Shown here one piece after another: positions 26,731 through 51,034 of a stretch of DNA of 64,000 bases; position 1 is the first letter of the stretch, and the number at the start of each line of letters is the position of its first letter. The position numbers were made by a program, and so were the translations under genes. Location of the stretch: the NCBI GenBank assembly GCA_045639185.1, contig JAZUCO010000115.1, forward strand, positions 17,573 to 81,572, given 5' to 3'. This DNA is from Acutalibacteraceae bacterium (GTDB lineage: Bacteria > Bacillota > Clostridia > Oscillospirales > Acutalibacteraceae). The notes below the pieces were generated by a model. That model had not been told where the DNA came from. It saw only the letters and a program-made list of their open reading frames with translations, and did not search any database.

Positions 26731-26752
26731 TATTTTTACGCCTCCGAAAAAG

Positions 26753-27418
26753 TTAATCCAGTCTCCAATCAACGAGATCATCTGCAAGAAATTCATTAGT
26801 TTTTGAGAATGGTCTGCTGCCGAAAAATCCGTTATATGCTGAGAGAGGGCTCGGATGTGCCGCTTCAAGAATAAAGTGATTTGGATTTGTAATAAGTTTT
26901 TTCTTATCTCTTGCAAATCTGCCCCAAAGTATAAACACAATTGGTTTTTCTCTCTTGTTGAGCAGTTCAATTATTCTGTCGGTAAAAATCTCCCAACCGA
27001 GACCACGATGACTTGCAGCTTCTCCGCCACGGACAGTTAATACCGTATTGAGAAGAAGAACTCCGTTTTCTGCCCATTTTGTAAGATCACCGCTAAGGGG
27101 AACAGGAAAACCAAGATCGTCGTGATATTCCTTAAAAATATTCACGAGTGACGGGGGAGGCTGAATACCGTTTTTTACAGAAAATGATAAGCCATGTGCC
27201 TGACCCGGACCGTGATAAGGATCCTGACCGAGTATAACAGCCTTAACAGAATCATAATCAGTTATTTTTAATGCATTGAAAATATCATACATATCAGGAT
27301 ATACATCGTAAGCAGGATTTTTATATTCTTTTGCAAGAAAGCTTCTTATTTTGAGATAATATTCTTTTTCAAATTCACCATTCAGAATATCATCCCAATT
27401 GTTATTAAAGCTTACCAT
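26753..27418 (-). CDS. ung: Uracil-DNA glycosylase
   Basis: [18 protein letters not shown] and HPSPLSA motifs of family 1 UDG. Confidence 0.93.
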
Positions 27419-27439
27419 TTGTATAACCTTCTTTCATAA

Positions 27440-28297: not shown

Positions 28298-28301
28298 CTG
28301 A

Positions 28302-30589: not shown

Positions 30590-30597
30590 AGCTATCC

Positions 30598-31386: not shown

Positions 31387-31407
31387 CCTTGCTTTAATAT
31401 ATGTTTG

Positions 31408-32568
31408 TTATATTTTATATATCAGCTTCATTATGTTTTTAGGTGAATAACGTGAAACAGTTTCATATGCATTAGCGATTATTGATTCTTTTTCAGGATA
31501 TTCAATCATTTTCTTTACACTTGATATCAAACTATCAGGATCTGGTTCTGCAAGTATGCAATTTTTTTCATTCACAGCAAACTCTTCAGTGCCAATTGAA
31601 CGTGTTATTATGCAAGGTGTTCCGATAGCCATAGATTCCAATACAACAAGTCCTTGTGATTCAACATATGATGTGTGAACAAGAAAATCTGCTTTTTTCA
31701 TATAGACATATGGATTTGGCTGATTGCCATGTAATGTTACATAATCAGACAGATTCAAATCTTTGATGAGATTGATTAATAGCTCCATTTTTTCGCCGTC
31801 GCCCACAAAGTGCCACTTGAAATCAGTATATCCGCTGTCAACAAGGTTTTTAGCTGCATAAACTGCATTTTCCATATGTTTTTCGGGTGCTAGTCTTCCG
31901 ACAGTTACAATATTTGTTTTATCACTTTGGAAGTTGAGATTGTCGATAGTCATTGATTTTTCCTGAACTTTATCTATGTCTACCATATTTTGAATAACAT
32001 CGAATTTATCAGCTAATTCCGGAAATTTTTCCGAAAGCATAATTTTGCAACCTTCGGAAACACTGATCATTTTGTCTAGATTTTTAATGTCTGTTACAAA
32101 ATCAACAGTCTCATTTGCTGTAAGGTTGTATTCACCATGGTGCCACCAGCCGATTGATTTCTCGCAATTTACAGCAAAAGCTGCAATATTCATACATATA
32201 CCGGGTCGAAAGCCGATAGCTATGTCATAATGCTTATTATTTGTAAAGATTTTTTTTGCTAATCTGATATTATTTATGCCATATAATTTAGTTATTAAGA
32301 AGATGATACGTAAAATGAAAGATTTCCAATCCTTAGATTTAATACATTTTAAGAGCGAGTCTTTTACACTGCCATAAGTATTGTGCAAATCTATCAATTT
32401 TATGTTTACATCTTCAGGAATTTCACTAAGGTAATCACCATATTCCTCGAGTAAGAGTAAATCCACATTGTAGTTGGTGTAATCAAAATTCTTTAAGATA
32501 TCAACTAAAGATCTTTCAACACCGCCACAGTTCAAATGGCCATTTATAAACAATACATTTTTTTTCAT
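31408..32568 (-). CDS. Family 4 (GT-B) glycosyltransferase
   Basis: NGHLNCGGVERSL N-terminus and C-terminal HTSYVESQGLVVLESMAIGTPCI (EX7E region). Confidence 0.8.
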   Translation of the reverse strand: MKKNVLFINGHLNCGGVERSLVDILKNFDYTNYNVDLLLLEEYGDYLSEIPEDVNIKLIDLHNTYGSVKDSLLKCIKSKDWKSFILRIIFLITKLYGINNIRLAKKIFTNNKHYDIAIGFRPGICMNIAAFAVNCEKSIGWWHHGEYNLTANETVDFVTDIKNLDKMISVSEGCKIMLSEKFPELADKFDVIQNMVDIDKVQEKSMTIDNLNFQSDKTNIVTVGRLAPEKHMENAVYAAKNLVDSGYTDFKWHFVGDGEKMELLINLIKDLNLSDYVTLHGNQPNPYVYMKKADFLVHTSYVESQGLVVLESMAIGTPCIITRSIGTEEFAVNEKNCILAEPDPDSLISSVKKMIEYPEKESIIANAYETVSRYSPKNIMKLIYKI

Positions 32569-32572
32569 AGAT

Positions 32573-33622
32573 TTATTTTCTTTCATAGTATCGTAGTATA
32601 AAATTAATTCCTATTTTGTATTTGTAACAATAAGTTAAGATTTTTTGTTTTTTAGAAATTGTTAATGCAGATATTTTGATTTCATTAAACATTGATGAAA
32701 GCTCATTTGTATTTAATATTTTATATATAATTTTTTTCTTTACTTTTCGAGAAACTGATTTTGTTTGCAATATATCTCCGACTGAATTATACAAGAAAAA
32801 GAGCAAAAGTCTGTTTATCTGATCGCTTAAATCAAATTCTTTAAAATCAGTAAAATAATTTTTAATTTTGTTATGCAACATTAAATAATTATCCCATTTT
32901 TTTGGATTAAATGTGTGCGTTGCAGATGAATCATTTGCAACATAATGATAAAAACATTTATCTTTCAGATAATAGAATGATTTAGCTTTTGAAATAACCT
33001 GCGCACCAAAAAACAAGTCTTCAGAATACTTAACACCATCAGGATATTTGCATATTAACTGATCATTTTTCTTTATACACTCAGATTTTATCATTAAAAG
33101 CCAATTTGAAATTGCTGGTGGATATTCACAATCAGGTGTAATAAGAAGGTTTGGATAATATTTATTTTTCAAATCCTCATAATCATAATAACCTGATCTT
33201 ATGTTATGGGAATATTTCTCCTGATGACTACCAAATTCTTTTAAGCAATCACACATAACAATGTCTACGGAATGTTTAATGGAAATACTTATCATGGTTG
33301 AATACATATCATTATCTATGTAATCATCACTGTCTACAAATGTTATATAATCTCCTGTACAATGAAACAAACCGTCATTACGTGCTGCGGATACGCCGGC
33401 ATTCTTTTTGTGAATAACAATAAATCTTGAATCTGATTTTGCGTAAGAATCACATATGGCAGGACTGTTATCTGCTGAACCGTCATCTATAAGTATTATC
33501 TCAAGATTAGAATATGTTTGTGACTTTATTGAATCTAGGCATCTTACCAAATATTTTTCAGAATTATACACAGGAACAATAACACTTATTTTTTTTTGTT
33601 CATAATGATTCATATTTCTCAT
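32573..33622 (-). CDS. Family 2 glycosyltransferase
   Basis: ISVIVPVYNSEKYL...IDDGSADNS...VDSDDY. Confidence 0.85.
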   Translation of the reverse strand: MRNMNHYEQKKISVIVPVYNSEKYLVRCLDSIKSQTYSNLEIILIDDGSADNSPAICDSYAKSDSRFIVIHKKNAGVSAARNDGLFHCTGDYITFVDSDDYIDNDMYSTMISISIKHSVDIVMCDCLKEFGSHQEKYSHNIRSGYYDYEDLKNKYYPNLLITPDCEYPPAISNWLLMIKSECIKKNDQLICKYPDGVKYSEDLFFGAQVISKAKSFYYLKDKCFYHYVANDSSATHTFNPKKWDNYLMLHNKIKNYFTDFKEFDLSDQINRLLLFFLYNSVGDILQTKSVSRKVKKKIIYKILNTNELSSMFNEIKISALTISKKQKILTYCYKYKIGINFILRYYERK

Positions 33623-33624
33623 TC

Positions 33625-34827
33625 CTAATTATCTATAATATTGTAGAGCTTATCAATTTCCGATTTATTTGAGTAATCACTTTTTGCAGCATTTTCTGCA
33701 ATTTTTCTTATTAGTTCAGGATTGTTGATAATTTCAACAATTTTTTCTGCACATTTTTGATTATCAAGAGGAACAATAATCCCATCATAACCATCTTTTA
33801 ATTGGCTTTTTGCTGTAGGGTAGTCTGTTATAATTACAGGTTTGCCTAAACACTGGGCCTCCTGGACAGTTATTGCTTTGCCCTCATATCGGGAAGGTTG
33901 AATGTATATATCACAATTTTTGATATATGGGTACGGATTATCTTTTTTGCCAAGAATTATAACATTGTTTTCAACATTAAATTCTTGGATTTTGTCATTT
34001 ATAAGTTGTTCATCATTGCCGAATCCGATTATATACCATTTAATTTTAACGCCTTTATCTAAAATTGCTTTGCAAATGCTGGGTATGTTATCAAAATTTT
34101 TAGCTGAACAAAATCTGCCAACAGAAAGTAGATTTAATTCTTCATCAGATGGATTGAATAAATCAAAATCTTTTGATTCTGCTTGTTCTTTAATAAAATT
34201 TGGTGCAAGTAAATTTTCTATATGAACCAGTTTGTTTTCTAATGAAGGATATTTCTTTAAGAAACCTTTTGTGCAATCATTAGAAAGTGATGCTATGTAA
34301 TCAAACTGAGACCACATTTTTTCTTCAGATTTCACATCAGTCATTACATATGAATAATCTGTGTGTATCCAAGCTAATTTTTTATTAGCTTGAACTTTTT
34401 CTGCAACAAAGTAGTGTGGTGTAAGATAACTTATTGCAAAATCATAGTGCTTATCTGAAATATTCGGCATATATTTATTTGTGTATTTGTGGCTGTATTC
34501 AAGTTCAATACAATTATCTGATGTAATATTATTGCGTTTCCTGTAAATAAGTGCTTTTATTTTTGCAAGAAGTCTTCCGAATGCAATTTTGAATTGTTTC
34601 TTTTTTAATACCGTTATAAAAGGTATTGCTAATGACGCATACTCAGGTATTTCACGCAACAAGTTAACTTTATCGGGGATAAATTTCAACAAAGGACCTG
34701 AGTGACGCATAAGAAATAAATCTACATCATATTGATCATAATCAAAGGTGCTTAAAAGAGAAAGAAGAGCTCTTTCTGCACCACCGATTTCCATTGCATG
34801 CATTGCAATAAATATCTTTTTCTTCAT
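33625..34827 (-). CDS. Family 4 (GT-B) glycosyltransferase
   Basis: MEIGGAERALLSL N-terminus and QPSRYEGKAITVQEAQCLGKPVI C-terminal motif. Confidence 0.8.
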   Translation of the reverse strand: MKKKIFIAMHAMEIGGAERALLSLLSTFDYDQYDVDLFLMRHSGPLLKFIPDKVNLLREIPEYASLAIPFITVLKKKQFKIAFGRLLAKIKALIYRKRNNITSDNCIELEYSHKYTNKYMPNISDKHYDFAISYLTPHYFVAEKVQANKKLAWIHTDYSYVMTDVKSEEKMWSQFDYIASLSNDCTKGFLKKYPSLENKLVHIENLLAPNFIKEQAESKDFDLFNPSDEELNLLSVGRFCSAKNFDNIPSICKAILDKGVKIKWYIIGFGNDEQLINDKIQEFNVENNVIILGKKDNPYPYIKNCDIYIQPSRYEGKAITVQEAQCLGKPVIITDYPTAKSQLKDGYDGIIVPLDNQKCAEKIVEIINNPELIRKIAENAAKSDYSNKSEIDKLYNIIDN

Positions 34828-35531
34828 TTCTTTAACCACCTGAAACAATCGACGCCGAATATTCTATGTATTGGTTTTGTCAATGTGCTGCGAATAATAG
34901 CTTTTTTTGATAACCAAGATTTTGAATACCAATGTATACTGATTGTGTTATCTGTAATATTTAATTTGCCTGTTGGGTCATCATATGGATTCATATAATC
35001 TACAGGCAAGACGACGAGATTATCAATAATCTGCTTTTCACCTGTCATTTTGAAGCCATATTCAACAAGAGCGGAAGTATTTAATTTTGGACAACCAATA
35101 AGGGGATAATCATTATTGTCGTCTTTTGGCAGTTTTTCATAACTATTTATTAAGAATTTTAATGATTCATTTTTTGCTTCAGAACCAAAACCTAAACCCG
35201 AAGCAATATATTCATTTGTTTCAAAAGCATAAAAAGCATTAAAATTAAGAAATTCATCAGGCTTTTTAATTAATTCAACATCCGTATCAAAATATATACC
35301 ACCATGCTCGTAAACGATAAGAAGTCTTGCAAAATCACTTAAAAAAGCATATTTTTTATTTTCATAACAATATTTTAAGTATGGATGTTGGTTTATGTCA
35401 AAGTTGCTTTCATTCCATTCAATTATTTCATAGTCAGGACAGAGTTTTTTCCAACTGTTTATACATTTTTGAATTTTTTTGCTTTTTTCATTTGCTCCAA
35501 ACCAGCAGTAATGTATTTTTTTAGGAATCAT
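34824..35531 (-). CDS. Family 32 glycosyltransferase (OCH1/capsule-type, DXD)
   Basis: IPKKIHYCWFG...FLSDFARLLIVYEHGGIYFDTDVE, the classic GT32 signature. Confidence 0.8.
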   Translation of the reverse strand: MIPKKIHYCWFGANEKSKKIQKCINSWKKLCPDYEIIEWNESNFDINQHPYLKYCYENKKYAFLSDFARLLIVYEHGGIYFDTDVELIKKPDEFLNFNAFYAFETNEYIASGLGFGSEAKNESLKFLINSYEKLPKDDNNDYPLIGCPKLNTSALVEYGFKMTGEKQIIDNLVVLPVDYMNPYDDPTGKLNITDNTISIHWYSKSWLSKKAIIRSTLTKPIHRIFGVDCFRWLKK

Positions 35532-36427
35532 CTAATTTTCCTTGCTTTCTTTATTGTGATCTTTGAAAGTATTATTCCAGGAATAATACATATGAGTGTC
35601 ATCAGTTTTTTTGGTGATTCTTTTATCATATTTTTGTTGTTTGCGATTATACAACTTGATACATAATGGATGCAATCAATAATTAATCTTTTTTTTGATG
35701 TTGGATACTGCATACATATTTTTCGCCAAAAAGCAAATCCTTTTGGGTTTTTATAGTATTGTTTCCACATTGTCGCACTTGAGCCATCCTGTTGATATTC
35801 AACGTTACATAGTACTTCATTCAATGTTGCGAGTTTGTAATCCTGGTCTATCAATTTGTATTTATAGGCTAATGCAACATATTTTTCATTATCAAATACC
35901 GGATACTTAGGATATTTGTTTATTATTTCAGTCTTATAAACAAGTTTTTTATCACCTGCACCACCATTAGCATAATATTCGCTAAGTGTTGTGAATTTAT
36001 TTATTTTTGAAAAATCGGTGCCTATAAGATTGTTATTAAAATCTGCATCCAAACCGATTATTCCAGCACATAAAGGGTTGTCTTTTACAGTAATCCATTT
36101 GTCATATATTTGCTGTATTGCATTTTTCGCCAGCATATCATCTGAATCTATGCAAATATTAAGCTCTGTAGCAATATTTTTGTATGCTTCGTTATGAGCC
36201 GTATGCATACCACCATTGTTTTTGTAAATATATTTAATCGTAAATTCTTTTTGTTCTAAAATCCAATTTTCAACTAAAGCTTTTGTGTTATCTGTTGAGC
36301 CATCATCAATAATGAGCCATATGAAATTTTTGTTATCTTGTGAGCATAATGATTTGTATGTTCGTGACAACGTATGTGCTCTGTTATAAGCAGGAGTAAA
36401 AATTGTTATAAAAGGTGCTTCATTCAT
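35528..36427 (-). CDS. Family 2 glycosyltransferase
   Basis: ITIFTPAYNRAHTL...IDDGSTDNT...IDSDDM. Confidence 0.8.
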   Translation of the reverse strand: MNEAPFITIFTPAYNRAHTLSRTYKSLCSQDNKNFIWLIIDDGSTDNTKALVENWILEQKEFTIKYIYKNNGGMHTAHNEAYKNIATELNICIDSDDMLAKNAIQQIYDKWITVKDNPLCAGIIGLDADFNNNLIGTDFSKINKFTTLSEYYANGGAGDKKLVYKTEIINKYPKYPVFDNEKYVALAYKYKLIDQDYKLATLNEVLCNVEYQQDGSSATMWKQYYKNPKGFAFWRKICMQYPTSKKRLIIDCIHYVSSCIIANNKNMIKESPKKLMTLICIIPGIILSKITIKKARKIR

Positions 36428-37521
36428 AAATTATTTACCTTTTCAATGTAATAATTTTCAAGCCATTTTGCATTCTCTTTGATATCAAATCCGGCTTGAA
36501 TTATTTTTTCGGCATTGTTTTTCTTATTGTGATTTTTGAATTCCAAGATTCTTTTTGCCCAAAGTTCAGGTGATTCATTTAATGATAAAAAATAAGCATC
36601 ATCTGAAATGTTGCAATCTGGTGTTATAGTGTCAGACATAATACAGGGGAGTCCTGCAGCTTGTGCTTCAACAGATGTTACAGGAAAACCTTCATATAAT
36701 GAAGGAAAAACAAACACATCAAATGCTTGAAGAATTTCATGAACATCATCACGTGAGCCTAAAAAAAGAACAGTATCTGTTAAACCATATTTTTCAACTT
36801 TATTTTCAATAGACTTTTGAAGATCTCCGCTGCCAACTAAAACTAATTTTGCAGTATTATCGCATTTGTATACTTCATAGAAAATATCAATAAGAAAATC
36901 ATGGTTTTTTTGTGGATTAAATCGTCCTATGTGTCCGATTACAAAATTGTTAGTCAAATTCAACTGATTTCTGATTTCTAATTCTATAAATTTATTGTAT
37001 ATAAATTTAGAAGTATCGATTGCATTATTGAAAATTGAAAAATGATAATTTCCAAACATCCATTCTCCTGCAATTTTACTACATGCAAACAAGTCTGTAG
37101 AAAAAAACGGTATGAACTTTTTAGCAAATACCTTGATAATATATTTAAAATTTTTATCCTGAGAAGAATTGTGAGAATGAGCAATTCTTACAGGTATATT
37201 GCATTTCTTTGCAACAGAAAGAGGAATTGCACTCATGCAATCTAAATGACAATGAACAATTTTGTATCGATTTTCAGAAAAGAACTTATATAGTTCTTTA
37301 TAATAAGAAATTGAAAAAGGATTTAGTTGACTAATGCGAAATATTTTTCCTCCGAGACTTTCAATTTCATCGTCATAATCAGCTTTAAAATCTCTATGTA
37401 CAAGAAAATCAAACTGAACTTTTGATCGATCGATATTTCGATAATAGTTCATTAACATTGTTTCCAGGCCGCCACGTCCCATATATGTGACAATATGCAA
37501 AATTCGTATTGGTTGCTTCAT
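36424..37521 (-). CDS. Family 4 (GT-B) glycosyltransferase
   Basis: MGRGGLETMLMN N-terminus and FPSLYEGFPVTSVEAQAAGLPCI C-terminal motif. Confidence 0.8.
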   Translation of the reverse strand: MKQPIRILHIVTYMGRGGLETMLMNYYRNIDRSKVQFDFLVHRDFKADYDDEIESLGGKIFRISQLNPFSISYYKELYKFFSENRYKIVHCHLDCMSAIPLSVAKKCNIPVRIAHSHNSSQDKNFKYIIKVFAKKFIPFFSTDLFACSKIAGEWMFGNYHFSIFNNAIDTSKFIYNKFIELEIRNQLNLTNNFVIGHIGRFNPQKNHDFLIDIFYEVYKCDNTAKLVLVGSGDLQKSIENKVEKYGLTDTVLFLGSRDDVHEILQAFDVFVFPSLYEGFPVTSVEAQAAGLPCIMSDTITPDCNISDDAYFLSLNESPELWAKRILEFKNHNKKNNAEKIIQAGFDIKENAKWLENYYIEKVNNL

Positions 37522-37532
37522 AAATACTTACT

Positions 37533-38633
37533 TTACCCCCAAGCAATAAATACTGAATAAATAAAATATAAAGAATAGCATATGTATAGTGAAGATTTAG
37601 CTAATTTTGAAATATTTTTATTGAAAATGTGATCAATTTCCCACGGTAGTAATATGTAGCTGAAGAGGGAAAAATAAATTGGTAGCCTACCAATAAAGAT
37701 ACCACTTGTGAACATTGATACAACATAGATGCCTGCAGATGCAATAGACATATTTGTGCAGACATTTATAACCGGATCATTTTCTTTATCTATAGTCTTT
37801 TTGCCGTAAAGCGAAATAATAGCGGGAACAGAGTAGACAAGAACTCTGAGAATATTTGTACCATCGTCCTGACCTTGTGTCCAGTCTGAAACAACATTCT
37901 GATACTGTGTGTCACTTAGTGCACTGTCAAGGATATCGGTAAACTGATCAACAAAGGAAACAGCAATTATAACACCAAATAAAAACAGTAATGTTTTTTT
38001 ATTCCATGCTTTACCTTGAACAATGAAAATAAACGGAATCACCAAAAGAGCAGAACCGTGGAAAAATGAAGCAAATAGTATAACAAGAATAGCATAGATA
38101 TGTTTTTTTGTTAATATGAAATTAAATGCAAACAGAATTATTGTAACAGCAGTAAATTGTCTGAGTCCGTTGAACATCCATGAAAGATAGTCAGTTGAGG
38201 CAACAAACAAAAATATACTCATGAAAAAATCAGAAGAATATTTTCTGTAAAGTTTAGCAAGCGAAAGCATCTGAAATGCAGCTAAAATCCCGAGATAAAC
38301 TTCATAATTATTTGTTATAAAAATTTTAATAATAAGAGATACAAATGAAAATAATTCGTCTTTCGAAACCGTTTGCATATATGCCTGTAATTCATCGAAT
38401 TTTGTAGGCATTGCCTTAAATCCGGTGATATATGCGGTTGTGTCTGCAAAATAGCCTCGTTGAGCTGCTATTATTATCAATGGAATTGAAAGTAACAGAA
38501 CCCATGTCCATGATACTCGAGGTTCAGTTTTACGTAATACACGGACAGGTACTTTTTTTGCTCCGGTCATATTGTAGAGTAATGCGACAACAGCCGGCCA
38601 TATTAATGTGAATATATATTTACCGGTTGTCAT
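37533..38633 (-). CDS. EpsG-family polysaccharide polymerase (Wzy-like)
   Basis: 366 aa, about 10 TM helices, with the DTTAYITGF and NGLRQFTAV loops typical of EpsG-type polymerases. Confidence 0.7.
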   Translation of the reverse strand: MTTGKYIFTLIWPAVVALLYNMTGAKKVPVRVLRKTEPRVSWTWVLLLSIPLIIIAAQRGYFADTTAYITGFKAMPTKFDELQAYMQTVSKDELFSFVSLIIKIFITNNYEVYLGILAAFQMLSLAKLYRKYSSDFFMSIFLFVASTDYLSWMFNGLRQFTAVTIILFAFNFILTKKHIYAILVILFASFFHGSALLVIPFIFIVQGKAWNKKTLLFLFGVIIAVSFVDQFTDILDSALSDTQYQNVVSDWTQGQDDGTNILRVLVYSVPAIISLYGKKTIDKENDPVINVCTNMSIASAGIYVVSMFTSGIFIGRLPIYFSLFSYILLPWEIDHIFNKNISKLAKSSLYICYSLYFIYSVFIAWG

Positions 38634-38648
38634 TAACAGTTCACTCGC

Positions 38649-39728
38649 TTAAATGATTTTATCGATTGTATTTTTTACAACCTGTTTTTTATCAAACTCG
38701 TTTTCCATTTTTGTTCTTGCATTTCTACCCATTTCTGCTTTTTCATTTGCAGAAAGAAGAATGAATTTCTTCATTTTTTCATATAGGTCATCAGAATCTT
38801 TAACATTTACAAGATAACCTGTTTCATTATCATTAACAGCCTCTTTACAACCCGGAATATCTGATGTGATTACAGGTCTGCCCGTTGCAGATGACTCAAG
38901 AAGAACATTGGACAAACCTTCGTGATAAGAGGGAAGTACTACACAGTTGCAATTCTTATAATAGGGAATTGTGTCAGTCTGAAAACCGTGAAAATTTATG
39001 ATTTTCTTTTTTGAAAGTTCTTCTGTAATTTGTTTATATTCATCCTCGAAAAATCCGACTACGTCTAAAGAAACCTTATCACCGAATTCATCTTTCAATC
39101 TCATAAAAGCATCAAAGAGTTCGTCAATACCTTTTTCTTTCATAATGCGTCCGAGATAAAGGAATTTAACTACGGAATCGTCAGGGTATTCAGAGTATTT
39201 GTATGTATCCAAATTTATACCGGCTCCGTTCAAAACAGTAATTTTATCTTTTTTAATTATTTTTTTATCGATAAAAATCTGCGCATTTGCATTGTTTTCA
39301 AAAAATATGGATTTTGCTTTACCTGTACCAGCTTTGTACATAAAAGATACGATTGCAGCTAATTTTTTGTTCTGAAATGCAGTTCCTAATCCCTGTACAT
39401 TGATATAGTACGGGATTTTTTTTAATCTTGCGGCAAGACCGCAGTAAATGTTTGGTTTTATTGAGTATGTGACAATTTTGTCAGGTTTTTCCTGCTTAAT
39501 CTGATTGAAATAAGTAAGCAAAAGCTTCAGATCGGTTTTAGGATTTATACCTCTGCGATCAATATCAGTGTTGATGCACTTGCAACCCATTGCTTCAAAA
39601 TCTTTTTCATGACCGACAAAAGGCATACTTAAAGTAACAGAATTATCCTTGAGTAATTCAGCAATAAGTTCTTTTCGGAAACGATATAACATATATGAGT
39701 GATTTGTTGCAATGAAGATTTTAGCCAT
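38649..39728 (-). CDS. GT4 glycosyltransferase, PglA/WbuB-like (second sugar transferase)
   Basis: MAKIFIATNHSYMLYRFRKELI...KPDKIVTYSIKPNIYCGLAARL...VQGLGTAF resembles PglA-type enzymes. ATG 39728 lies 4 nt after the upstream stop. Confidence 0.7.
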   Translation of the reverse strand: MAKIFIATNHSYMLYRFRKELIAELLKDNSVTLSMPFVGHEKDFEAMGCKCINTDIDRRGINPKTDLKLLLTYFNQIKQEKPDKIVTYSIKPNIYCGLAARLKKIPYYINVQGLGTAFQNKKLAAIVSFMYKAGTGKAKSIFFENNANAQIFIDKKIIKKDKITVLNGAGINLDTYKYSEYPDDSVVKFLYLGRIMKEKGIDELFDAFMRLKDEFGDKVSLDVVGFFEDEYKQITEELSKKKIINFHGFQTDTIPYYKNCNCVVLPSYHEGLSNVLLESSATGRPVITSDIPGCKEAVNDNETGYLVNVKDSDDLYEKMKKFILLSANEKAEMGRNARTKMENEFDKKQVVKNTIDKII

Positions 39729-39732
39729 AATA

Positions 39733-40344
39733 TTATTCCTTGTCTTTTTTCTCGAGAGTGCCTGTACCGCCTTCAACAACACCTTCATGTTTGATAACCT
39801 GAAGAGCGGTAGCAATAATGCATTTTATATCAAAGGGCAGACTCATTTTTTCAACATATTCGCCGTCAAATTTTGCTTTGACGTCTATTTCAAGTTCATC
39901 TCTGCCATTGACCTGCGCCCAACCTGTAAGACCCGGGCGGATATTGTTTGCTCCGTATTTATCACGTTCTGCAATAAGGTCTTCCTGATTCCAGAGTGCA
40001 GGTCTGGGACCTACAATTGACATATCACCCTTAAGAATGTTGAAAAGTTGGGGTAGTTCATCAAGACTGGATTTTCTGAGAAATTTACCGACTTTTGTGA
40101 TAAATGCATCAGGATTATTAAGAAGGTGTGTCGGCATATCATGAGGTGTGTCTGTTCGCATCGAACGGAATTTATACATATTGAAATGCTTATTGTCTTT
40201 GCCAACTCTTTTCTGCACAAAAAGAACAGGACCTTTTGAATCAGCTTTTACTGCAATTGAACAACCCAATAAAACAGGAGATAATACAATTACAGCAAAT
40301 AGTGATACGAGAAAATCTATCATTCTTTTAACAATTTTATACAC
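39733..40344 (-). CDS. Small monotopic phosphoglycosyl transferase (PglC/WcfS-like, initiating enzyme)
   Basis: 203 aa. One N-terminal re-entrant helix, then KFRSM...DELPQLFNILKGDMSIVGPRP. Confidence 0.85.
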   Translation of the reverse strand: MYKIVKRMIDFLVSLFAVIVLSPVLLGCSIAVKADSKGPVLFVQKRVGKDNKHFNMYKFRSMRTDTPHDMPTHLLNNPDAFITKVGKFLRKSSLDELPQLFNILKGDMSIVGPRPALWNQEDLIAERDKYGANNIRPGLTGWAQVNGRDELEIDVKAKFDGEYVEKMSLPFDIKCIIATALQVIKHEGVVEGGTGTLEKKDKE

Positions 40345-42235
40345 TTAATACACCTTCGTTTTCGGGATGGTATGTCGGAACAAGTTTCATTACTGATGCT
40401 CTGATATTATCTCCGTTAAGATAGCATTCATCTCTGAGATAAGCAAGGTTTGTGAAAAATTCATCAGCATCGACATCAGATAATTTGCCGATAAAAATAA
40501 GATCATTTTTTGTTTTCTCTAGACCTTCTTCAGACATAAGTAGCTCCTCATAGAGTTTTTCGCCCGGTCTGAGACCTGTATATTCAATTTTGATATCAAT
40601 ATCGGGTTCAAAACCTGAAAGTTTTATCATTCGTCTTGCAAGATCGTCAATTTTGACCGGTTGTCCCATATCAAGAATGAAAATCTCTCCTCCGTTTGCA
40701 TAGAAACCTGCCTGAAGAACAAGAGATACAGCCTCTGGTATTGTCATAAAATATCTTATAATATCTTTATGTGTAACTGTTACGGGGCCGCCACGTGCAA
40801 TTTGTTTTCTGAAAAGAGGAATAACACTTCCGTTTGAGCCGAGAACATTACCGAAACGAACAGCAACGAATCTCGTTTTTGAAATCTTCGCAAAACATTC
40901 AATTATCATTTCACAAAGACGTTTGGAAGCACCCATTATATTTGTAGGGTTGACTGCCTTATCTGTTGATATGAGAACGAATGTTGAAACGCCGTGTTTG
41001 TTTGCAGAATTAGCAACATTATATGTACCAAAAACATTGTTTTTGATTGCTTCGTTCGGTGCGTCTTCCATAAGCGGAACATGTTTATGTGCAGCTGCGT
41101 GATATACGATATCAGGTTTGTATGTTTCAAAAAGTGAATCTACACGCTGGATATCGCGCACTGAACCGATTATTACATCAAGATCAAGCTGGGGATTATT
41201 TGCTTTCAATTCTTGCTGAATTGCATATGCATTATTTTCATAAATATCAAAAATTATAAGTTTTGCAGGATTAAAAGATGCAATCTGACGGCACAACTCA
41301 CTTCCTATAGAACCGCCACCACCGGTTACAAGTATCTTTTTGCCTGATATCATTGCTTGGATTTCAGAAAGATCAACTTTAATGCAATCTCTGCCAAGAA
41401 GGTCTTCAATTTCGACATTTCTGATTTGCTCTATCCTGACCTCACCGTTGGTAAATTGTGTGATTGAGGGAACAATGCTTAATGAGCATTTTGTTTTCTG
41501 GCACTCATCAATTATGACTCTTTTTTCTGAATTAGAAGCTGAAGGAATAGCCAGAATTATTTTATCAATTCTGTATTTATCAGCTATTTCGGGAATGTGT
41601 TCACAATTATTTACAACTTTAACACCATGAATAAATTTGCCGATTTTACTTGGGCTATTATCAAGCATACAGATTACACGACCTCTTGAGTGCGGACTTG
41701 TCTGCAACTCTCTGAGAACGCTAACGCCTGAACGACCTGCGCCTATTATCATAACTCTGTCGAGTTTATTTGAACGTTTGATATTTGTTTTTACCTTACC
41801 TGCAAAGCGGTAAGAGAATCTTAATGTTGTAATTGCACCGACAAGAAATATAAAATAGATTATAGGGTAACTTTTTGGGAAAAAGATGTTTGCTTTTGCT
41901 CTTAACAAAAAAAGTAATATAGTGTTGAGCGCAGTTGATGATATACAAGCTGCTGCGATTGTTGTGAATTCATCAAAGCCAGCATATTTCCATATACCTC
42001 TGTACAGCTTAAAAAATACAAACACTATAAGAGTAATAAGTGTTGTAGCAGGAGACACGCTGAATATACTCTGAACAAAACCTGCTGAAATTAATTCGTG
42101 CAGATTAAACTCAAACCTTACAAATAATGCAAGGAATGAAGCAAGGTTTATTAAAATTATGTCAGCAAATACCAGTGCTGCAGTTTTTAGGTTATGAAGA
42201 ATAGTATCTTTACCTGCGGGATCCAATCTGATCAT
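40337..42235 (-). CDS. Membrane-bound UDP-HexNAc 4,6-dehydratase (CapD/PglF/WbpM family)
   Basis: Four N-terminal TM helices, then two Rossmann regions (IIGAGRSG; VTGGGGSIGSEL) and an SDR catalytic region. Confidence 0.85.
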   Translation of the reverse strand: MIRLDPAGKDTILHNLKTAALVFADIILINLASFLALFVRFEFNLHELISAGFVQSIFSVSPATTLITLIVFVFFKLYRGIWKYAGFDEFTTIAAACISSTALNTILLFLLRAKANIFFPKSYPIIYFIFLVGAITTLRFSYRFAGKVKTNIKRSNKLDRVMIIGAGRSGVSVLRELQTSPHSRGRVICMLDNSPSKIGKFIHGVKVVNNCEHIPEIADKYRIDKIILAIPSASNSEKRVIIDECQKTKCSLSIVPSITQFTNGEVRIEQIRNVEIEDLLGRDCIKVDLSEIQAMISGKKILVTGGGGSIGSELCRQIASFNPAKLIIFDIYENNAYAIQQELKANNPQLDLDVIIGSVRDIQRVDSLFETYKPDIVYHAAAHKHVPLMEDAPNEAIKNNVFGTYNVANSANKHGVSTFVLISTDKAVNPTNIMGASKRLCEMIIECFAKISKTRFVAVRFGNVLGSNGSVIPLFRKQIARGGPVTVTHKDIIRYFMTIPEAVSLVLQAGFYANGGEIFILDMGQPVKIDDLARRMIKLSGFEPDIDIKIEYTGLRPGEKLYEELLMSEEGLEKTKNDLIFIGKLSDVDADEFFTNLAYLRDECYLNGDNIRASVMKLVPTYHPENEGVLSV

Positions 42236-42413: not shown

Positions 42414-43136
42414 ATGTTTATTGATTTACATTGTCATATATTGCCCGATGTAGATGACGGTGCAGAATCTTTTAATGAAGCTGTTGATATTATCACTACA
42501 GCAAACAAATCAGGTACTACAATAATGGTACTCACACCTCATTATAATCAGATGAATAAACATCATTGTCATCTTAACAAAGAAATACTGACCGAAAAAT
42601 ACAAAAAATTCATATCAGATACAGAAAAAATTGATGCTAAAGTCAAGTTCTTTTTAGGTTCTGAATTGTTTGCAGATAAGAACATTTCGGATTTGTGTAA
42701 GAACAATGAGATTGTATCACTGAATGCATCAAGATATGTTCTTACTGAATTTTATTTTGATGAGAAAATTGGGAATATTCAAAGCTATACCGATGAACTC
42801 TTATCTTTTGGCTATATTCCTGTTATTGCTCATCCCGAGAGATATAAAGATTTATCTCAGCAAGAATATTTTTCATTAATCAACAAAGGTTGTAAATTTC
42901 AGCTGAATAAAAACAGTATTCTAGGCAAGAACGGCAATGAAGTCAAAGAATTGGCATGGTGGATGCTGAATAATGATTTTGTTCATATAATAGCAAGTGA
43001 TTGCCATAATTCAACATCCAGAAATGCTGACCTCAGCGAGCTATATGTACAGCTTCTTGATCAATTCAGCCCTGATAAAATCAGTGTCTGGATGCACGAT
43101 AATCAGAAAAGAATTTTACTTGATAGAAATATTTAA
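42414..43136 (+). CDS. cpsB: CpsB/YwqE-type PHP-family protein-tyrosine phosphatase
   Basis: MFIDLHCHILPDVDDGA N-terminus plus HPERY and SDCH motifs. Confidence 0.9.
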   Translation: MFIDLHCHILPDVDDGAESFNEAVDIITTANKSGTTIMVLTPHYNQMNKHHCHLNKEILTEKYKKFISDTEKIDAKVKFFLGSELFADKNISDLCKNNEIVSLNASRYVLTEFYFDEKIGNIQSYTDELLSFGYIPVIAHPERYKDLSQQEYFSLINKGCKFQLNKNSILGKNGNEVKELAWWMLNNDFVHIIASDCHNSTSRNADLSELYVQLLDQFSPDKISVWMHDNQKRILLDRNI

Positions 43137-43150
43137 GAGAAGGTAATACA

Positions 43151-44008
43151 ATGCGAATAATAAGACTTTTTATAGTAATTTTATTTATAATCAGTATAGC
43201 GTTCACTGTTTACATAAAACTCAGTGACAATGCTGACTATCAGGCACCTGTAATTGTTTGCAGTCAGGAGAAAATTATTGCAAGTGTTAAAGATTCTGAT
43301 GAGAAGTTATTGAGTTATGTAACAGCTAATGATGCTAAAGACGGAGACTTGACTGAAAATATAATTATTGAATCAATCTCACCATTCATAAGCAAAAATA
43401 CCGCAAAAATCACATATGCGGTCTGTGACTCAGAAAATAATGTTGCAAAGATTGAAAAAGACATTGTTTTTTTTGACTATACTGCACCTGAATTCAAGTT
43501 CAGTACTCAGCATGTATATTATGTAGGCGCTACAAAAGTTGAGCTTTTGAACGGTGTTACAGCATACGATAGTCTTGATGGTGATATTTCATCCAGAATC
43601 GTAATCTCTGATTCGGAGATAAATTTGTCCGAGCCCGGAATTTATCCGGTTACATACAAAGTTGCCACCAGTAAAGGTGTTACGGCAGAAATTACTGTGA
43701 ATGCGTATGTTTATGCAAGCCGTCTTACTGATGTAATACCTCTTAAATCCTATCTGGTTTATACTGATTTCGGTAAAGCTATTGATGCAGAAAGCTATAT
43801 TACATCAATACCTGATAAGTATTTTAACAACGAAGATAGTCTCTACAGATATGATTTTGAAATAATTGAAAATGTAGATTACAAAAAACAGGGTATTCAC
43901 TATGTCACTTACAGAATATCAAGAATAGATGAAAACGAGGAGTTTTCAGAGCCGTTTGTAATTGCAGAATCATATCTTGCAGTTGCAGTAAGGGGTGAGA
44001 ATAAATGA
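43151..44008 (+). CDS. Membrane-anchored protein with two Ig-like (DUF5011-type) domains
   Basis: N-terminal TM, then two repeats of the pattern (Y/T)xAP...A(N/Y)D..DGD(L/I)(T/S)..I.I... Confidence 0.55.
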   Translation: MRIIRLFIVILFIISIAFTVYIKLSDNADYQAPVIVCSQEKIIASVKDSDEKLLSYVTANDAKDGDLTENIIIESISPFISKNTAKITYAVCDSENNVAKIEKDIVFFDYTAPEFKFSTQHVYYVGATKVELLNGVTAYDSLDGDISSRIVISDSEINLSEPGIYPVTYKVATSKGVTAEITVNAYVYASRLTDVIPLKSYLVYTDFGKAIDAESYITSIPDKYFNNEDSLYRYDFEIIENVDYKKQGIHYVTYRISRIDENEEFSEPFVIAESYLAVAVRGENK

Positions 44009-45411
44009 GAGAAATCCGTTTTGATTATATAAATTGGTATACCATTGCTAAAGATGTATTGCGAAACGGCTGGATTATTTTGCTTGCATTCTTAACCGGC
44101 TTTTTTGGTATCAGAGCTTATTTTGATTTTACATATAAACCTGAATACAAATGTTCAGCCACAGTTGCCATTAATGCAACAGATTCCGGTCTTTATTCTT
44201 TCTCTAGCCTTAATAAAACTATCGAAGCTGCATCTACCTTTCAGGAAATGTTTCAGAGTTCTTATTTTAAGGAGAAACTTGAGGATATTACAAAAAATCC
44301 TGTTGATGGTGTAATTTCTGCTGAACAGATTTCAGAAACAAATCTTATTGTAATGTCTTACAAATGCGATTCTCCCATTGAAGCATATTCAATGCTGATT
44401 GCAGTTATTGAAAATTATAATGTAATAACAGACTACAACTTTGAGAATATGCTTATTAATGTTATATCGCAGCCTGTTGTTCCAACAGTCCCGTCAAACC
44501 CTATTTCTTATAATCATTATGATAAGATTGCAGCAGTCGCATTGGCTTTTGCTGTGCTGTTCTTTGTTGTAGTTTTTTCTTATTTCAGAGACACAGTAAA
44601 AAATGAAACTGATGTTAATTCAATGCTTGATACAAAATTGTTTAGTGTTGTATATCATGAGGAAAAGAACAAGACATTAAAAGCAAAACTCGGATTATCT
44701 CATTCAAAAGATCCGTTGTTAATAACAAACATTCTGATAAATTACAGATTTGCTGAAACATTCAGAATAGCAGCACTTAAGCTTGATTATTTTGTGAAAG
44801 CTAAAAATGTTAAAACTGTTATGATAACCAGCTGTGGTGAAAATGAAGGTAAATCAACAGCATCTGTAAATCTTGCACTTTCAATGGCAAAGATGGGAAG
44901 AAAAACTCTCCTTGTTGATGCTGACTTGAGAAAACCCGCAGTATATAAATTTTTCAACAATCAATACAATGATAAGCTTCAGGGGCTGGGTGAAGTTATC
45001 CGTGGAAATATTGCAATAAATAACGCAATTATAAAAGAACCTAATACAGGACTTTATATTATGTGCGGTAAGCAAAAATACAGAAATAGCTCAGAAATGA
45101 TTTCTACAAAGCGGTTTGAAATGTTTGTTGAATCTCTTAAAGAGCAATTTGATGTAATTATATTTGATACACCTCCCACATCTCTTGTATCTGATGCAGA
45201 AATTATTTCAGGATATATAGATGCAGCACTTATTGTCGTTCGTCAGGATATTGCTCCCGTTCCTGAAATTAATGATATGATTGAAATGATTAGTCAATCA
45301 GGTGCATCTGTTGAAGGTTGTATTTTTAATGATGTTCATGTTCTTCCTTCACTTTTCTCCAAATTAGAACAATCTTATGATGTTGATAAGAAATCGGAGG
45401 TGAATTCCTGA
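44005..45411 (+). CDS. Wzz/CpsC-like chain-length domain fused to an intact BY-kinase domain, with no C-terminal Tyr cluster
   Basis: Two TM helices flank a polar loop. Walker A GENEGKST, Walker A' LLVDADLRKP, Walker B VIIFDTPP. The C-terminus ...LFSKLEQSYDVDKKSEVNS has one Tyr. The ATGA overlap couples it to the upstream gene. Confidence 0.8.
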   Translation: MREIRFDYINWYTIAKDVLRNGWIILLAFLTGFFGIRAYFDFTYKPEYKCSATVAINATDSGLYSFSSLNKTIEAASTFQEMFQSSYFKEKLEDITKNPVDGVISAEQISETNLIVMSYKCDSPIEAYSMLIAVIENYNVITDYNFENMLINVISQPVVPTVPSNPISYNHYDKIAAVALAFAVLFFVVVFSYFRDTVKNETDVNSMLDTKLFSVVYHEEKNKTLKAKLGLSHSKDPLLITNILINYRFAETFRIAALKLDYFVKAKNVKTVMITSCGENEGKSTASVNLALSMAKMGRKTLLVDADLRKPAVYKFFNNQYNDKLQGLGEVIRGNIAINNAIIKEPNTGLYIMCGKQKYRNSSEMISTKRFEMFVESLKEQFDVIIFDTPPTSLVSDAEIISGYIDAALIVVRQDIAPVPEINDMIEMISQSGASVEGCIFNDVHVLPSLFSKLEQSYDVDKKSEVNS

Positions 45412-47087
45412 TGACATCATTTCAGAAGAAATCATCAGCATTTACTGACGTTTCAGAAAATGCTTCACATCAGCCGGAAAATGTAATATTTGATTCAGCG
45501 GTTTTTGCTGTAGACTTTGCCAAGGCAATAAAAAAATTCTGGTATATAATTTTATGTTTAGCATTAATATTTGGGTTTTCCGCAGGTTCATTTAAGTATA
45601 AAAACTATCAACCTATGTATGAGTCATCTGTATCTTTTTCTGTTACAGCTGTATCTTACAGTGCTAACGGAAATGCAGTTTTTGCATCTTACTATGATAA
45701 TAATTCAGCTTCGCAGTTATCTAAAACATTTCCATATATACTCAATACAGCAATGATGAAAAATGCTCTCAAAAATGAATTACAGTCATCATACATTAAT
45801 GGTGCTATTTCAGCCTCTTCAGTTGCTGCTGATTCAAATATTTTTAAGGTTACTGTCACAAGCAATAATCCTGAAGATGCATACAATATTGTCAATGCTG
45901 TAGTTAATGTATATCCTGAAGTTGCTGTTTTTGTTGTAGGAAATATCAGTCTTAAAATTCTGATTCAGCCGACATTGCCTACTGAACCTTATACAACAAA
46001 TAACTTTATCCGAACCGGTATAATTATGGCACTGGTAGGTGTTGGTTTTGGATTTGGACTTATTGCTGTTTATGCATTTTTCAGAAATACGGTCAGAAAA
46101 AAAGAAGATTTCAAAAACAAACTGAATCAGAAGTGTTTTGTTGAAGTTCCGTATGTTACATTCTACAGAACATCCAAAAGAGAGAAGAAAAATGAGCATG
46201 TTGTCAGAATTAATGACAGACATCCGACATTCAAAGAGTCGTTCAGATTGCTCAGAAAAAGACTTCTCAGAAATCTTTCAACAGATGATAAAGTTATAGC
46301 TGTTAGTGCTGCAGTTCATGGTGAGGGCAAAACAATGGTTGCTCTTAACCTTGCTCACACGCTTGCGCTCTCAAAACATAAAACAGCTTGCGTTGATTTT
46401 GATCTGAAAACACGCAGTGTTCAGAAATATCTTAAACTTGATAAAAAGTATGGTTTTACTGACATTATTTCTGATTCTTCAGCTGATTTTTCCGCTGTGT
46501 GTTATAATGATGATGAATGTCTTGATATTTATATAGCCGGCAATTCATCATATGTGTTTAATGAGACTGAATGTATAACATTTTTTGAATATCTTAGAAA
46601 GCATTATGATTATGTAATCGTTAATGTTGCACCTGCTAAAGAAATATCTGAAGCAGTAAGCGCAACCAATTTGTGTGATTGCTTATTGCTTGTTGCATAT
46701 CAGGACAGGACTTCAATTGATAAAATCAGAAAAACACTTGAAGTTATGTCTTTCAGCACAGCAAAAATTCTTGGTTTTGTGTTCAATGGCGTCCAGGAAG
46801 GATTTAGCGGATACGGTGGTTACTACGACGGTAAATATGGCTATGGTCGTTATGGTTACGGTAAATACGGTTATGGTGCAAAATATGGCTATGGCAAAAA
46901 ATATGGTTACGGATATGGCCATCATAAAGCAAAAAACTCAGCTGGTTATGGCTATGGACATGGTTATGGCTATGGTGAAGAAAATGATGATGATGAGGAT
47001 AATGTTGACAACTCAAAAAGACTTGATGTCGCTGTTAATCACAGTCTGGCTTCATTAGATGATTTTGATATTCCGGATAATGCTTAA
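45411..47087 (+). CDS. Wzz/CpsC-like domain fused to a degenerate BY-kinase-like domain with a hyper-expanded (YGX)n tail and an acidic C-terminus
   Basis: Walker A HGEGKT is retained. A' is VDFDLKTR instead of DxDxR. Walker B is VIVNVAP (Asn where Asp is expected). The tail is GYGGYYDGKYGYGRYGYGKYGYGAKYGYGKKYGYGYGHH...GYGYGHGYGYGEENDDDEDN. Confidence 0.8.
   Translation: MTSFQKKSSAFTDVSENASHQPENVIFDSAVFAVDFAKAIKKFWYIILCLALIFGFSAGSFKYKNYQPMYESSVSFSVTAVSYSANGNAVFASYYDNNSASQLSKTFPYILNTAMMKNALKNELQSSYINGAISASSVAADSNIFKVTVTSNNPEDAYNIVNAVVNVYPEVAVFVVGNISLKILIQPTLPTEPYTTNNFIRTGIIMALVGVGFGFGLIAVYAFFRNTVRKKEDFKNKLNQKCFVEVPYVTFYRTSKREKKNEHVVRINDRHPTFKESFRLLRKRLLRNLSTDDKVIAVSAAVHGEGKTMVALNLAHTLALSKHKTACVDFDLKTRSVQKYLKLDKKYGFTDIISDSSADFSAVCYNDDECLDIYIAGNSSYVFNETECITFFEYLRKHYDYVIVNVAPAKEISEAVSATNLCDCLLLVAYQDRTSIDKIRKTLEVMSFSTAKILGFVFNGVQEGFSGYGGYYDGKYGYGRYGYGKYGYGAKYGYGKKYGYGYGHHKAKNSAGYGYGHGYGYGEENDDDEDNVDNSKRLDVAVNHSLASLDDFDIPDNA
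46800..46976 (+). repeat. Coding imperfect tandem repeat (GGT/GGC-TAT/TAC)n encoding the Tyr-Gly tract
   Basis: Repeated ggttatggc/tatggt units are visible in the nucleotide sequence. They encode 18 Tyr and more than 20 Gly in about 59 codons. Confidence 0.9.
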
Positions 47088-47092
47088 ACTCA

Positions 47093-47123
47093 AACAGCGA
47101 CATTCAAATGTCGCTGTTTTTTT
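47093..47123 (+). terminator. Rho-independent terminator of the kinase operon
   Basis: aacagcgacat/atgtcgctgtt stem followed by a T-run. Confidence 0.85.
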
Positions 47124-47153: not shown

Positions 47154-47184
47154 AATAGTAATAAAAAAATGAAAGGTGAACAGT

Positions 47185-51027: not shown

Positions 51028-51034
51028 AAAAAAA

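Follow-up and report, generated by a model that had tools for sequence, protein, structure and literature searches.

Two adjacent genes, ORF1 and ORF2 (open reading frames), in a stretch of DNA from an Acutalibacteraceae bacterium encode bacterial tyrosine kinase (BY-kinase) homologues that we read, with a probability of about 60%, as ancient tandem duplicates in which the enzyme role has come to lie with ORF1 and the substrate role with ORF2. The stretch, hereafter called the window, comprises 64,000 nucleotides (nt) (GCA_045639185.1, contig JAZUCO010000115.1, positions 17,573-81,572 of the forward strand). BY-kinases control capsule and exopolysaccharide production, and in the accepted model each subunit serves as both enzyme and substrate within a homo-octameric ring, the two roles being hard to separate experimentally. 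In the canonical homo-octamer, then, every subunit combines both functions, whereas in the window one paralogue has the active site and the other, co-transcribed with it, the Tyr cluster. The proposed division into a writer and a substrate is well supported by comparative and structural-homology evidence.

The genes lie on the plus strand in the order cpsB, Ig-like (immunoglobulin-like) membrane protein, ORF1 and ORF2, and a terminator-like hairpin follows:

42414..43136, plus strand: cpsB, PHP-type phosphotyrosine phosphatase, first gene of the operon and presumed eraser (Pfam CpsB_CapC, E 2.3e-59)
43151..44008, plus strand: single-pass membrane protein with a Bact_surface_Ig-like domain (Pfam E 1.6e-12; N-terminal transmembrane segment at residues 1-27)
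44005..45411, plus strand: ORF1, the P1 paralogue, 468 amino acids (aa), a polysaccharide co-polymerase (PCP) domain with two transmembrane (TM) helices fused to a catalytically complete BY-kinase domain
45411..47087, plus strand: ORF2, the P2 paralogue, 558 aa, a two-TM PCP domain, a degenerate BY-kinase-fold domain, a Tyr-rich disordered tail and an acidic C terminus
47092..47119, plus strand: intrinsic-terminator-like hairpin and T-run closing the operon, a 12-pair stem followed by TTTTTATT

As in the CpsB-CpsC-CpsD module, a PHP-family phosphatase (cpsB, 42414-43136) is encoded with the kinase. The Ig-like protein (43151-44008) gave no match in an NCBIfam scan. The start of ORF1 overlaps the stop of the upstream gene (ATGA, 44005-44008) and the stop of ORF1 shares 1 nt with the start of ORF2 (TGATG, 45409-45413), so that the overlaps from which the initial annotation read translational coupling are confirmed; GGAGG-like ribosome-binding sites lie 5' of both starts.

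ORF1 and ORF2 are paralogues along their whole length (25% identity over 445 aa, E 2e-30), and no other BY-kinase homologue is encoded in the window. Each had been described as a fusion of a two-TM Wzz/CpsC-like domain to a P-loop kinase, and hydropathy, AlphaFold2 (AF2) models and Foldseek searches agree with that description. In each AF2 model a pair of TM helices, a small external domain of mixed alpha/beta structure and a P-loop domain can be made out; the mean predicted local distance difference test (pLDDT) score is 82.8 for ORF1 and 78.9 for ORF2, in which tail residues 472-558 are disordered. In Foldseek both models align to full-length Wzc and CapAB chimeras (target TM-score 0.82-0.87), the Wzc match having E 3e-27 for ORF1 and 3e-22 for ORF2 and the CapAB match a target TM-score of 0.87 for each, and the solved BY-kinases matched by both ORFs are VpsO, Wzc, BceF, CapB and Etk. 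Against the NCBIfam model TIGR01007 (cut-off 108.05 bits), ORF1 scores 133.6 bits and ORF2 falls under the cut-off at 89.4 bits. Both polypeptides show the PCP-2a topology, with two TM segments flanking an external domain and a cytoplasmic kinase following in the same chain, but the external domain, at only about 130 aa, is CapA/CpsC-like in size and is not the large alpha-helical periplasmic domain of PCP-2a proteins; the host is one of the Gram-positive-type Clostridia. The elements on which the comparison turns are as follows:

44056..44130, plus strand: ORF1 TM helix 1, aa 18-42 by hydropathy (AF2 helix 22-43)
44515..44598, plus strand: ORF1 TM helix 2, aa 171-198 by hydropathy (AF2 helix 169-194)
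44755..44775, plus strand: ORF1 alpha2 O-motif ETFRIAA, weakened (ExxRxxA, not ExxRxxR)
44833..44856, plus strand: ORF1 Walker A CGENEGKS, canonical
44908..44937, plus strand: ORF1 Walker A' LLVDADLRKP, DxDxRK intact
45154..45177, plus strand: ORF1 Walker B VIIFDTPP, DTPP intact
45516..45599, plus strand: ORF2 TM helix 1, aa 36-63 by hydropathy (AF2 helix 44-64)
46005..46085, plus strand: ORF2 TM helix 2, aa 199-225 by hydropathy (AF2 helix 199-224)
46236..46256, plus strand: ORF2 alpha2 O-motif ESFRLLR (ExxRxxR intact), putative docking helix of the donor face defined below
46311..46334, plus strand: ORF2 Walker A AVHGEGKT, intact
46386..46415, plus strand: ORF2 Walker A' ACVDFDLKTR, DxD kept, equivalent of Arg81 replaced by Lys
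46611..46634, plus strand: ORF2 degenerate Walker B YVIVNVAP, Asp to Asn, Thr to Val, first Pro to Ala
46812..46973, plus strand: ORF2 Tyr cluster of (YG)n type, 18 Tyr in 54 residues (aa 468-521)
47061..47084, plus strand: ORF2 extreme C-terminal motif DFDIPDNA (aa 551-558), specific to the Asp-to-Asn clade described below

Mapping of the motifs on Staphylococcus aureus CapB by HMMER and MAFFT gave the following correspondence of key residues (one-letter code):

CapB E23: E in ORF1, E in ORF2
CapB R26: R in ORF1, R in ORF2
CapB R29: A in ORF1, R in ORF2
CapB K55: K in ORF1, K in ORF2
CapB S56: S in ORF1, T in ORF2
CapB D77: D in ORF1, D in ORF2
CapB D79: D in ORF1, D in ORF2
CapB R81: R in ORF1, K in ORF2
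CapB K82: K in ORF1, T in ORF2
CapB E133: E in ORF1, Y in ORF2
CapB D157: D in ORF1, N in ORF2
CapB T158: T in ORF1, V in ORF2
CapB P159: P in ORF1, A in ORF2
CapB P160: P in ORF1, P in ORF2

The Walker A pattern GxxxxGK[ST] is present in both proteins (GENEGKS in ORF1, HGEGKT in ORF2), and with its Walker A undamaged ORF2 is probably still able to bind nucleotide. At Walker A' (hhhhDxDxR) the ORF1 sequence VDADLR matches and the ORF2 sequence VDFDLK has the DxD but Lys for Arg, and at Walker B (hhhhDxxP) ORF1 conforms (IIFDTPP) and ORF2 does not (VIVNVAP). ORF1 is thus canonical at all three motifs in the CapB alignment, and its last 60 residues hold one Tyr (Y458), in agreement with the initial annotation, which had credited it with every BY-kinase motif and no Tyr cluster. 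The same annotation had reported ORF2 as having a conserved Walker A, Asn in place of the Walker B Asp and an 18-Tyr cluster, all of which hold: the alignment gives the Asn, and the 18 Tyr were counted within the 54 residues, making the cluster 33% Tyr, whereas residues 1-455 of ORF2 have 24 in all. Its view that Walker A' departs from DxDxR is right as regards the Arg-to-Lys change and overstated otherwise, both Asp residues of DxD being kept. Neither polypeptide carries a Tyr cluster together with an intact active site. Two substitutions were set aside as signs of decay: loss of the Walker A' Arg was rejected as a strict mark of inactivation because Lys or His is common there in catalytically intact clostridial P1s, and K82 to Thr in ORF2 was not counted as a loss because canonical P2s mostly have Asn at that position.

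In the CapB octamer, bonds join E23, R26 and R29 of a subunit to E133 and R81 of its neighbor, and K82 and P159-P160 enclose the substrate Tyr, with D79 positioned to deprotonate it (PMC2422856). These contacts allow a donor face, formed by alpha2 and the tail, to be distinguished from an acceptor face formed by R81, K82, E133, DTPP and the P-loop. ORF1 keeps the whole acceptor face (P-loop Lys, DxD, Arg-Lys, alpha7 Glu and DTPP) and has lost the tail and the donor-face R29. ORF2 keeps the donor face, with its ExxRxxR alpha2 and 18-Tyr tail, and has lost R81, E133, D157, T158 and P159 of the acceptor face. The residues kept by ORF1 and by ORF2 therefore fall on opposite, complementary faces of the CapB ring interface.

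The close relatives of ORF2 form a clade that shares the Walker B Asp-to-Asn change. At every clade locus with enough flanking sequence (8/8, counting L086, which begins inside P1 so that P1 is cut by the contig end), an intact tail-less P1 lies directly 5' of P2; the two genes overlap by 1 nt in seven loci and by 4 nt in L003 and L086, and seven of the 8 loci carry the full cassette of cpsB, Ig-like gene, P1 and P2. Among 16 ORF2 orthologues of 52-89% identity, the Walker B Asn (Asn405) is invariant, as are alpha2 residues K275, E276, F278, R279, L280, L281, R282 and R284 (K-E-x-F-R-L-L-R-x-R), Walker A EGKT, both DxD Asp and most tail Tyr. The conservation of the Walker B Asn and the tail Tyr across these orthologues indicates that the motif pattern of ORF2 did not arise by chance. 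Non-synonymous divergence (dN) of the kinase domain from three orthologues is 0.33, 0.43 and 0.59 for ORF2 and 0.11, 0.14 and 0.27 for ORF1, values given as relative dN and not as a ratio to synonymous divergence (dS), which is saturated (>1.2 or undefined). Non-synonymous change in the kinase domain is thus 2-3 times greater in ORF2 than in ORF1; no other part of ORF2, neither the membrane domain nor even the tail, evolves as fast, though dN stays far below the saturated dS.

These comparisons bear on the suggestion that ORF2 is a decaying, nonfunctional duplicate. Its degenerate Walker B and A' and its TIGR01007 score under the cut-off are what such decay would give, but every orthologue has an unbroken frame, none varies in Asn405, the alpha2 motif, Walker A or the tail, dN lies far below dS and the AF2 fold is confident. 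Conservation effectively refutes decay, which we consider extremely improbable, and the invariance across 16 orthologues together with dN far below dS marks ORF2, as judged from sequence, as a selected protein with a relaxed active site and not a pseudogene.

P2s with the Asp-to-Asn change commonly carry a further element, D-x-[DE]-I-P-D-N, located at the C terminus or within about 10 residues of it, after an acidic/basic spacer. It was seen in P0002-P0015, P0017 and P0021 and at L083-L085, and it was not found in P0016 (from clade member L086) or in the distant P2s inspected, P0019, P0020 and P0022-P0027. It may be a docking peptide.

ORF2 relatives number in the thousands, nearly all of them fused PCP-kinases of 480-560 aa from Clostridia, and of the 116 listed relatives whose tail is complete, all except one have 7-37 Tyr in the (YG)n tail (7 in P0095 and P0074). 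The relatives of ORF1 form a separate, equally large clade in which Walker A ENEGK[ST] is invariant. Scanning GTDB genomes, one for each species, with a profile of the ORF1 clade brought up at least 577 relatives; the best 80 of these and L001 made up the 81 loci analyzed, or 82 with the window, drawn from Acutalibacteraceae, Oscillospiraceae, Lachnospiraceae, Ruminococcus, Dysosmobacter, Blautia, Roseburia, Anaerostipes and others. A further fused paralogue (P2) comes immediately after the ENEGK paralogue (P1), in the same orientation, at 78 of the 81 loci, the three exceptions being contig ends or rearranged order. Apparent P1-P2 gaps run from about -250 to +54 nt, the large negative values being an artefact of longest-ORF start calls. 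A homologue of the Ig-like membrane protein (~285 aa) lies directly 5' of P1 in 79/82 loci across Clostridia, and cpsB lies 5' of the Ig-like gene in 58/82. The arrangement cpsB, Ig-like gene, P1, P2 is therefore a conserved and widespread clostridial cassette, in most lineages of which both paralogues are complete kinases; publicly, both go by the names "polysaccharide biosynthesis tyrosine autokinase," "CpsD/CapB family tyrosine-protein kinase" and "AAA family ATPase." This wider sampling corrects the initial annotation on three points. It had regarded the fusion as atypical for Bacillota, but fused PCP-kinases of ~500 aa with (YG)n tails of 10-25 Tyr are the norm in Clostridia, and 281 fused "P-type" kinases in Bacillota are already listed in BYKdb and in the BY-kinase review. 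Nor is the "huge" Tyr cluster unusual, since long (YG)n tails are the norm in clostridial relatives, and the tandem is not unique, such syntenic pairs having been found in 78/81 loci.

Several variants of the cassette were noted in passing. At L021 (1513-6054) and L063 (2875-7347) the order is P2, cpsB, Ig-like gene, P1; in both, P1 is tail-less and the P2 P-loops are Lys-less (GEGSS or REGST). Some Oscillospiraceae P1s of 654-826 aa (L043, L046 and L051) have C-terminal extensions of 200-380 aa past the Tyr cluster. No exact match was obtained for the sequence of the window ORF2 or for that of P0002, and a metagenome contig scan with the ORF2-clade profile yielded only one irrelevant 1.6-kb contig.

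The 78 tandem pairs were divided by the P1 tail into those with a Tyr-tailed P1 (n = 52) and those with a tail-less P1 (<=4 Tyr; n = 26). Across all 78, P1 has never lost K55, D79 or D157, and D77 is always Asp or Glu; the tail-less P1s keep K55, D77, D79, D157 and P160 in 26/26 cases. P2, by contrast, has lost K55, D77, D79 or D157 in 10/26 pairs with a tail-less P1 versus 1/52 pairs with a Tyr-tailed P1 (Fisher p = 4e-5, by a test that ignores shared ancestry), so that, this single P2 aside, the catalytic residues are canonical in both paralogues when P1 has a tail. In the 26 P2s that accompany a tail-less P1, retention on the acceptor face is low (R81 8/26, E133 4/26, T158 4/26, P160 13/26) and retention on the donor side is nearly complete (E23 26/26, R26 23/26, R/K29 25/26; median 13 tail Tyr), and the CapB R29 position is Ala in 21/26 of the tail-less P1s themselves. 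A neighbor-joining tree shows that the kind of P2 loss differs by branch. Walker B Asp is replaced by Asn in the clade of the window, and the sister L012 keeps Asp; Walker A Lys is replaced by Ser in L004, L005 and L007, nested among Lys-keeping relatives; the catalytic DxD Asp has become Asn twice, in L010 and L070; and L079 has Walker A Lys to Arg and no Walker A' at all. P2 has thus lost different catalytic residues at least four times where P1 is tail-less. Lineages that are without the Walker A Lys or the DxD catalytic Asp still carry 10-16 tail Tyr, and this can be understood only with a different kinase acting on the tail.

The strongest challenge comes from the possibility that ORF2 is an active autokinase, homo-oligomeric and acting on its own tails, with ORF1 a phosphorylation-independent co-polymerase or ATPase of the PssP/GumC kind, having Walker motifs but lacking a Y-cluster, that works beside ORF2 or modulates it. 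ORF2 does retain the Walker A Lys/Thr (GK[T]), both DxD Asp, including the proposed catalytic base, and the alpha2 O-motif. The Walker B mutation D649N of Acinetobacter baumannii Wzc is tabulated as "kinase activity not affected" (PMC9800525), which means that Asp to Asn alone does not prove a kinase dead and that autophosphorylation of ORF2 is possible. Rhizobium leguminosarum PssP, moreover, has all Walker motifs without a Y-cluster and forms heterocomplexes with PssP2 (PMC4182512). However, the DTPP Thr, the first Pro and the A' Arg have gone from ORF2 as well, and these are residues of the CapB substrate-Tyr pocket and ring contacts; P2 of sister lineages that likewise have a tail-less P1 has kept 10-16 tail Tyr after losing the Walker A Lys or DxD Asp altogether; and the kinase domain is the least constrained part of ORF2. 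We regard an autonomous ORF2 kinase as unlikely, though it is the alternative to be taken most seriously.

The retained ORF2 residues and the D649N result also count against a division of labor between ORF1 and ORF2, and other observations do so too. Mutations in the CapAB alpha2 interface did not lower autokinase activity in vitro (PMC2422856). The pair statistics, as noted, take no account of shared ancestry. R29 is not Arg in 28/52 of the Tyr-tailed P1s, so that P1 has a weak O-motif also where tails exist, and most canonical P2s have Asn at the CapB K82 position; part of the asymmetry between the paralogues therefore predates the split. Finally, at L005, L009 and L022, and also at L004, L007, L016 and L032, the Ig-like gene, P1 and P2 form a three-gene island with no adjacent cpsB or glycosyltransferase operon. 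The writer and pseudokinase-substrate roles assigned in the initial annotation consequently stand in part: the 8/8 clade loci, the repeated P2 losses, the relaxed ORF2 kinase domain and the complementary faces speak for them, while the intact Walker A and DxD and a Walker B change that need not abolish activity mean that ORF2 may have residual autokinase activity.

Separately, it was observed that the three-gene islands occur in Acutalibacteraceae-like genomes with apparently unrelated, unannotated flanks and that they include the lineage whose P2 has lost the Walker A Lys.

If the enzyme role does lie with ORF1 and the substrate role with ORF2, the retention pattern suggests how the pair might work; from it we infer that the two form a heteromer, which way phosphorylation runs and that ORF2 is inactive. 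ORF1 and ORF2 would co-assemble in the membrane, as an alternating ring or as a set of heterodimers held by the membrane domains. ORF2 would dock its alpha2 helix on ORF1 and feed its tail into the ORF1 active site, giving the assembly an ORF2-to-ORF1 direction; ORF1 would phosphorylate the tail, and the accumulated charge would loosen the assembly until CpsB reset it by removing the tail phosphates. Such a phosphorylation cycle would tune polysaccharide polymerization and export. That phosphotyrosine cycling persists is argued from the co-transcribed CpsB phosphatase.

A looser relationship can also be imagined, in which ORF1 and ORF2 act independently, for example in two chain-length modes like those set by duplicated Wzz proteins, the (YG)n tail is a low-complexity structural region and no regulatory phospho-acceptor, and ORF1 has other targets, sugar dehydrogenases or the priming transferase among them. 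Phosphorylation of other proteins by BY-kinases is known, PCP paralogues with opposite chain-length effects exist, and some related Ig-like/P1/P2 modules have no adjacent phosphatase gene. Independence nevertheless accords poorly with the 1-nt or 4-nt overlaps in the Asp-to-Asn clade and the small overlaps or short gaps in most other pairs, with the strict co-occurrence of P1 and P2 (78/81 loci), with the homology of the (YG)n tail to the phospho-acceptor clusters of canonical partners, with the co-transcription of cpsB at the window locus and with complementary residue retention on two faces of one interface, and we consider it improbable, more so than an active ORF2.

The pair has much in common with S. 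aureus CapA-CapB, Streptococcus pneumoniae CpsB-CpsC-CpsD and Escherichia coli Wzc-Wzb, namely the P-loop fold, Walker A, A' and B and the alpha2 ExxRxxR (with the departures given above for each ORF), a C-terminal Tyr cluster, a two-TM activator domain, association with a Wzx/Wzy locus and a PHP phosphatase, CpsB, in the operon. Unlike the canonical systems, both paralogues here are fused to their own short CapA-like membrane domain; where Streptococcus makes its modulator (CpsC) and its one autokinase (CpsD) as separate proteins, this locus has a pair of proteins in each of which modulator and kinase are fused. BY pseudokinases that lack both catalytic residues and Tyr tail are known in Myxococcus xanthus EcpK, Caulobacter crescentus HfsB and Xanthomonas campestris GumC (PMC12004946, PMC9800525) and have been proposed to act without phosphorylation (PMC12004946). 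ORF2 resembles them in being a degenerate BY-kinase fold under selection in a polysaccharide pathway, but it does not belong to their type: it lacks the Walker B Asp and A' Arg and yet has kept, and even expanded, its Tyr tail to 18 residues, and it adjoins an intact kinase paralogue and a phosphatase. PssP and PssP2 are likewise PCP-2a-like paralogues found in heterocomplexes, and PssP, like ORF1, has Walker motifs without a Y-cluster; however, PssP2, with neither motifs nor Y-cluster, offers no phospho-acceptor partner, the genes lie in different clusters and the organism is Gram negative. Duplicated BY-kinases with one active and one inactive member are represented by CapA1B1/CapA2B2 and PtkA/PtkB, and a pseudokinase-like regulatory role has been speculated for the inactive duplicates, S. 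aureus CapB1 and Bacillus subtilis PtkB (PMC3795738). They differ from ORF1 and ORF2 in that both copies have Tyr clusters and canonical motifs and occupy separate loci, and they are not described as having lost enzyme features in one copy and substrate features in the other. In line with the initial annotation, which knew of no described system of this kind, full-text literature searches, with most subscription journals outside their coverage, gave no description of a tandem of a tail-less kinase and a tailed degenerate kinase, nor of the clostridial cassette itself.

The presumed target of regulation lies divergent from the cpsB operon:

25906..42235, minus strand: Wzx/Wzy-type polysaccharide biosynthesis operon, identified by Pfam matches (the 25906 boundary is assumed, the Pfam scan having left out ORFs 25906-29039)

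Its Pfam content comprises a CapD-like Polysacc_synt_2 dehydratase, a Bac_transf priming transferase, GT4 and GT2 glycosyltransferases, an EpsG (Wzy-like) polymerase and a Polysacc_synt (Wzx) flippase. Among the glycosyltransferases is an MptE-like (PF01973) protein (30598-31386, minus strand), an unusual companion for a capsule locus. Within the window ORFs that the Pfam scan covered (42414-47087 and 29036-42235), no outer-membrane polysaccharide export (OPX) gene was found. An Rfam scan of the window found three tRNAs only (15403-15476, minus strand; 25375-25448 and 25461-25533, plus strand, the last two at the far end of the biosynthesis operon) and no regulatory RNA near the operon, and a promoter scan did no better than shuffled sequence (22 sites observed versus 26.7 expected), so that no promoter is named.

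The gene neighborhood of the Asp-to-Asn clade is stable. Directly 3' of the operon is a GH2 glycoside hydrolase gene (47176-49431, plus strand), syntenic in L001, L083 and L086, and beyond it are genes for rubrerythrin (49482-50018, minus strand) and a GFO/IDH/MocA oxidoreductase (51116-52396, minus strand), syntenic in L001 and L084. A 320-aa ORF (50185-51147, minus strand) is very Cys-rich, with many CxxC-like spacings; ORFs in the same position in L001 and L084 (280 and 279 aa) have no Pfam match. A 127-aa Met/Val-rich ORF in another frame (46675-47058, plus strand) overlaps the YG-repeat region of ORF2 and was rejected as a gene, being a reading-frame artefact.

Extended from the window to the cassette of gut Clostridia as a whole, the proposal would be that P1 and P2 form an obligate, directional heteromer whose roles have been separated in several lineages, P2 repeatedly becoming a tail-bearing pseudokinase; we hold this to be evenly poised between right and wrong. 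To the same balanced degree, the cassette may represent the first natural "writer plus dedicated substrate-pseudokinase" BY-kinase system. If so, the assembly would be alternating or heterodimer based in place of the canonical C8 homo-octamer, and the system would permit direct tests of the coupling among trans-phosphorylation, ring assembly and control of polymer chain length. It would also provide a clear example of subfunctionalization that yields a bacterial pseudokinase which is still a phospho-substrate, and it would call for re-annotation of proteins in species-level Clostridia genomes, at least 577 in number, many from gut commensals whose capsules shape host interaction.

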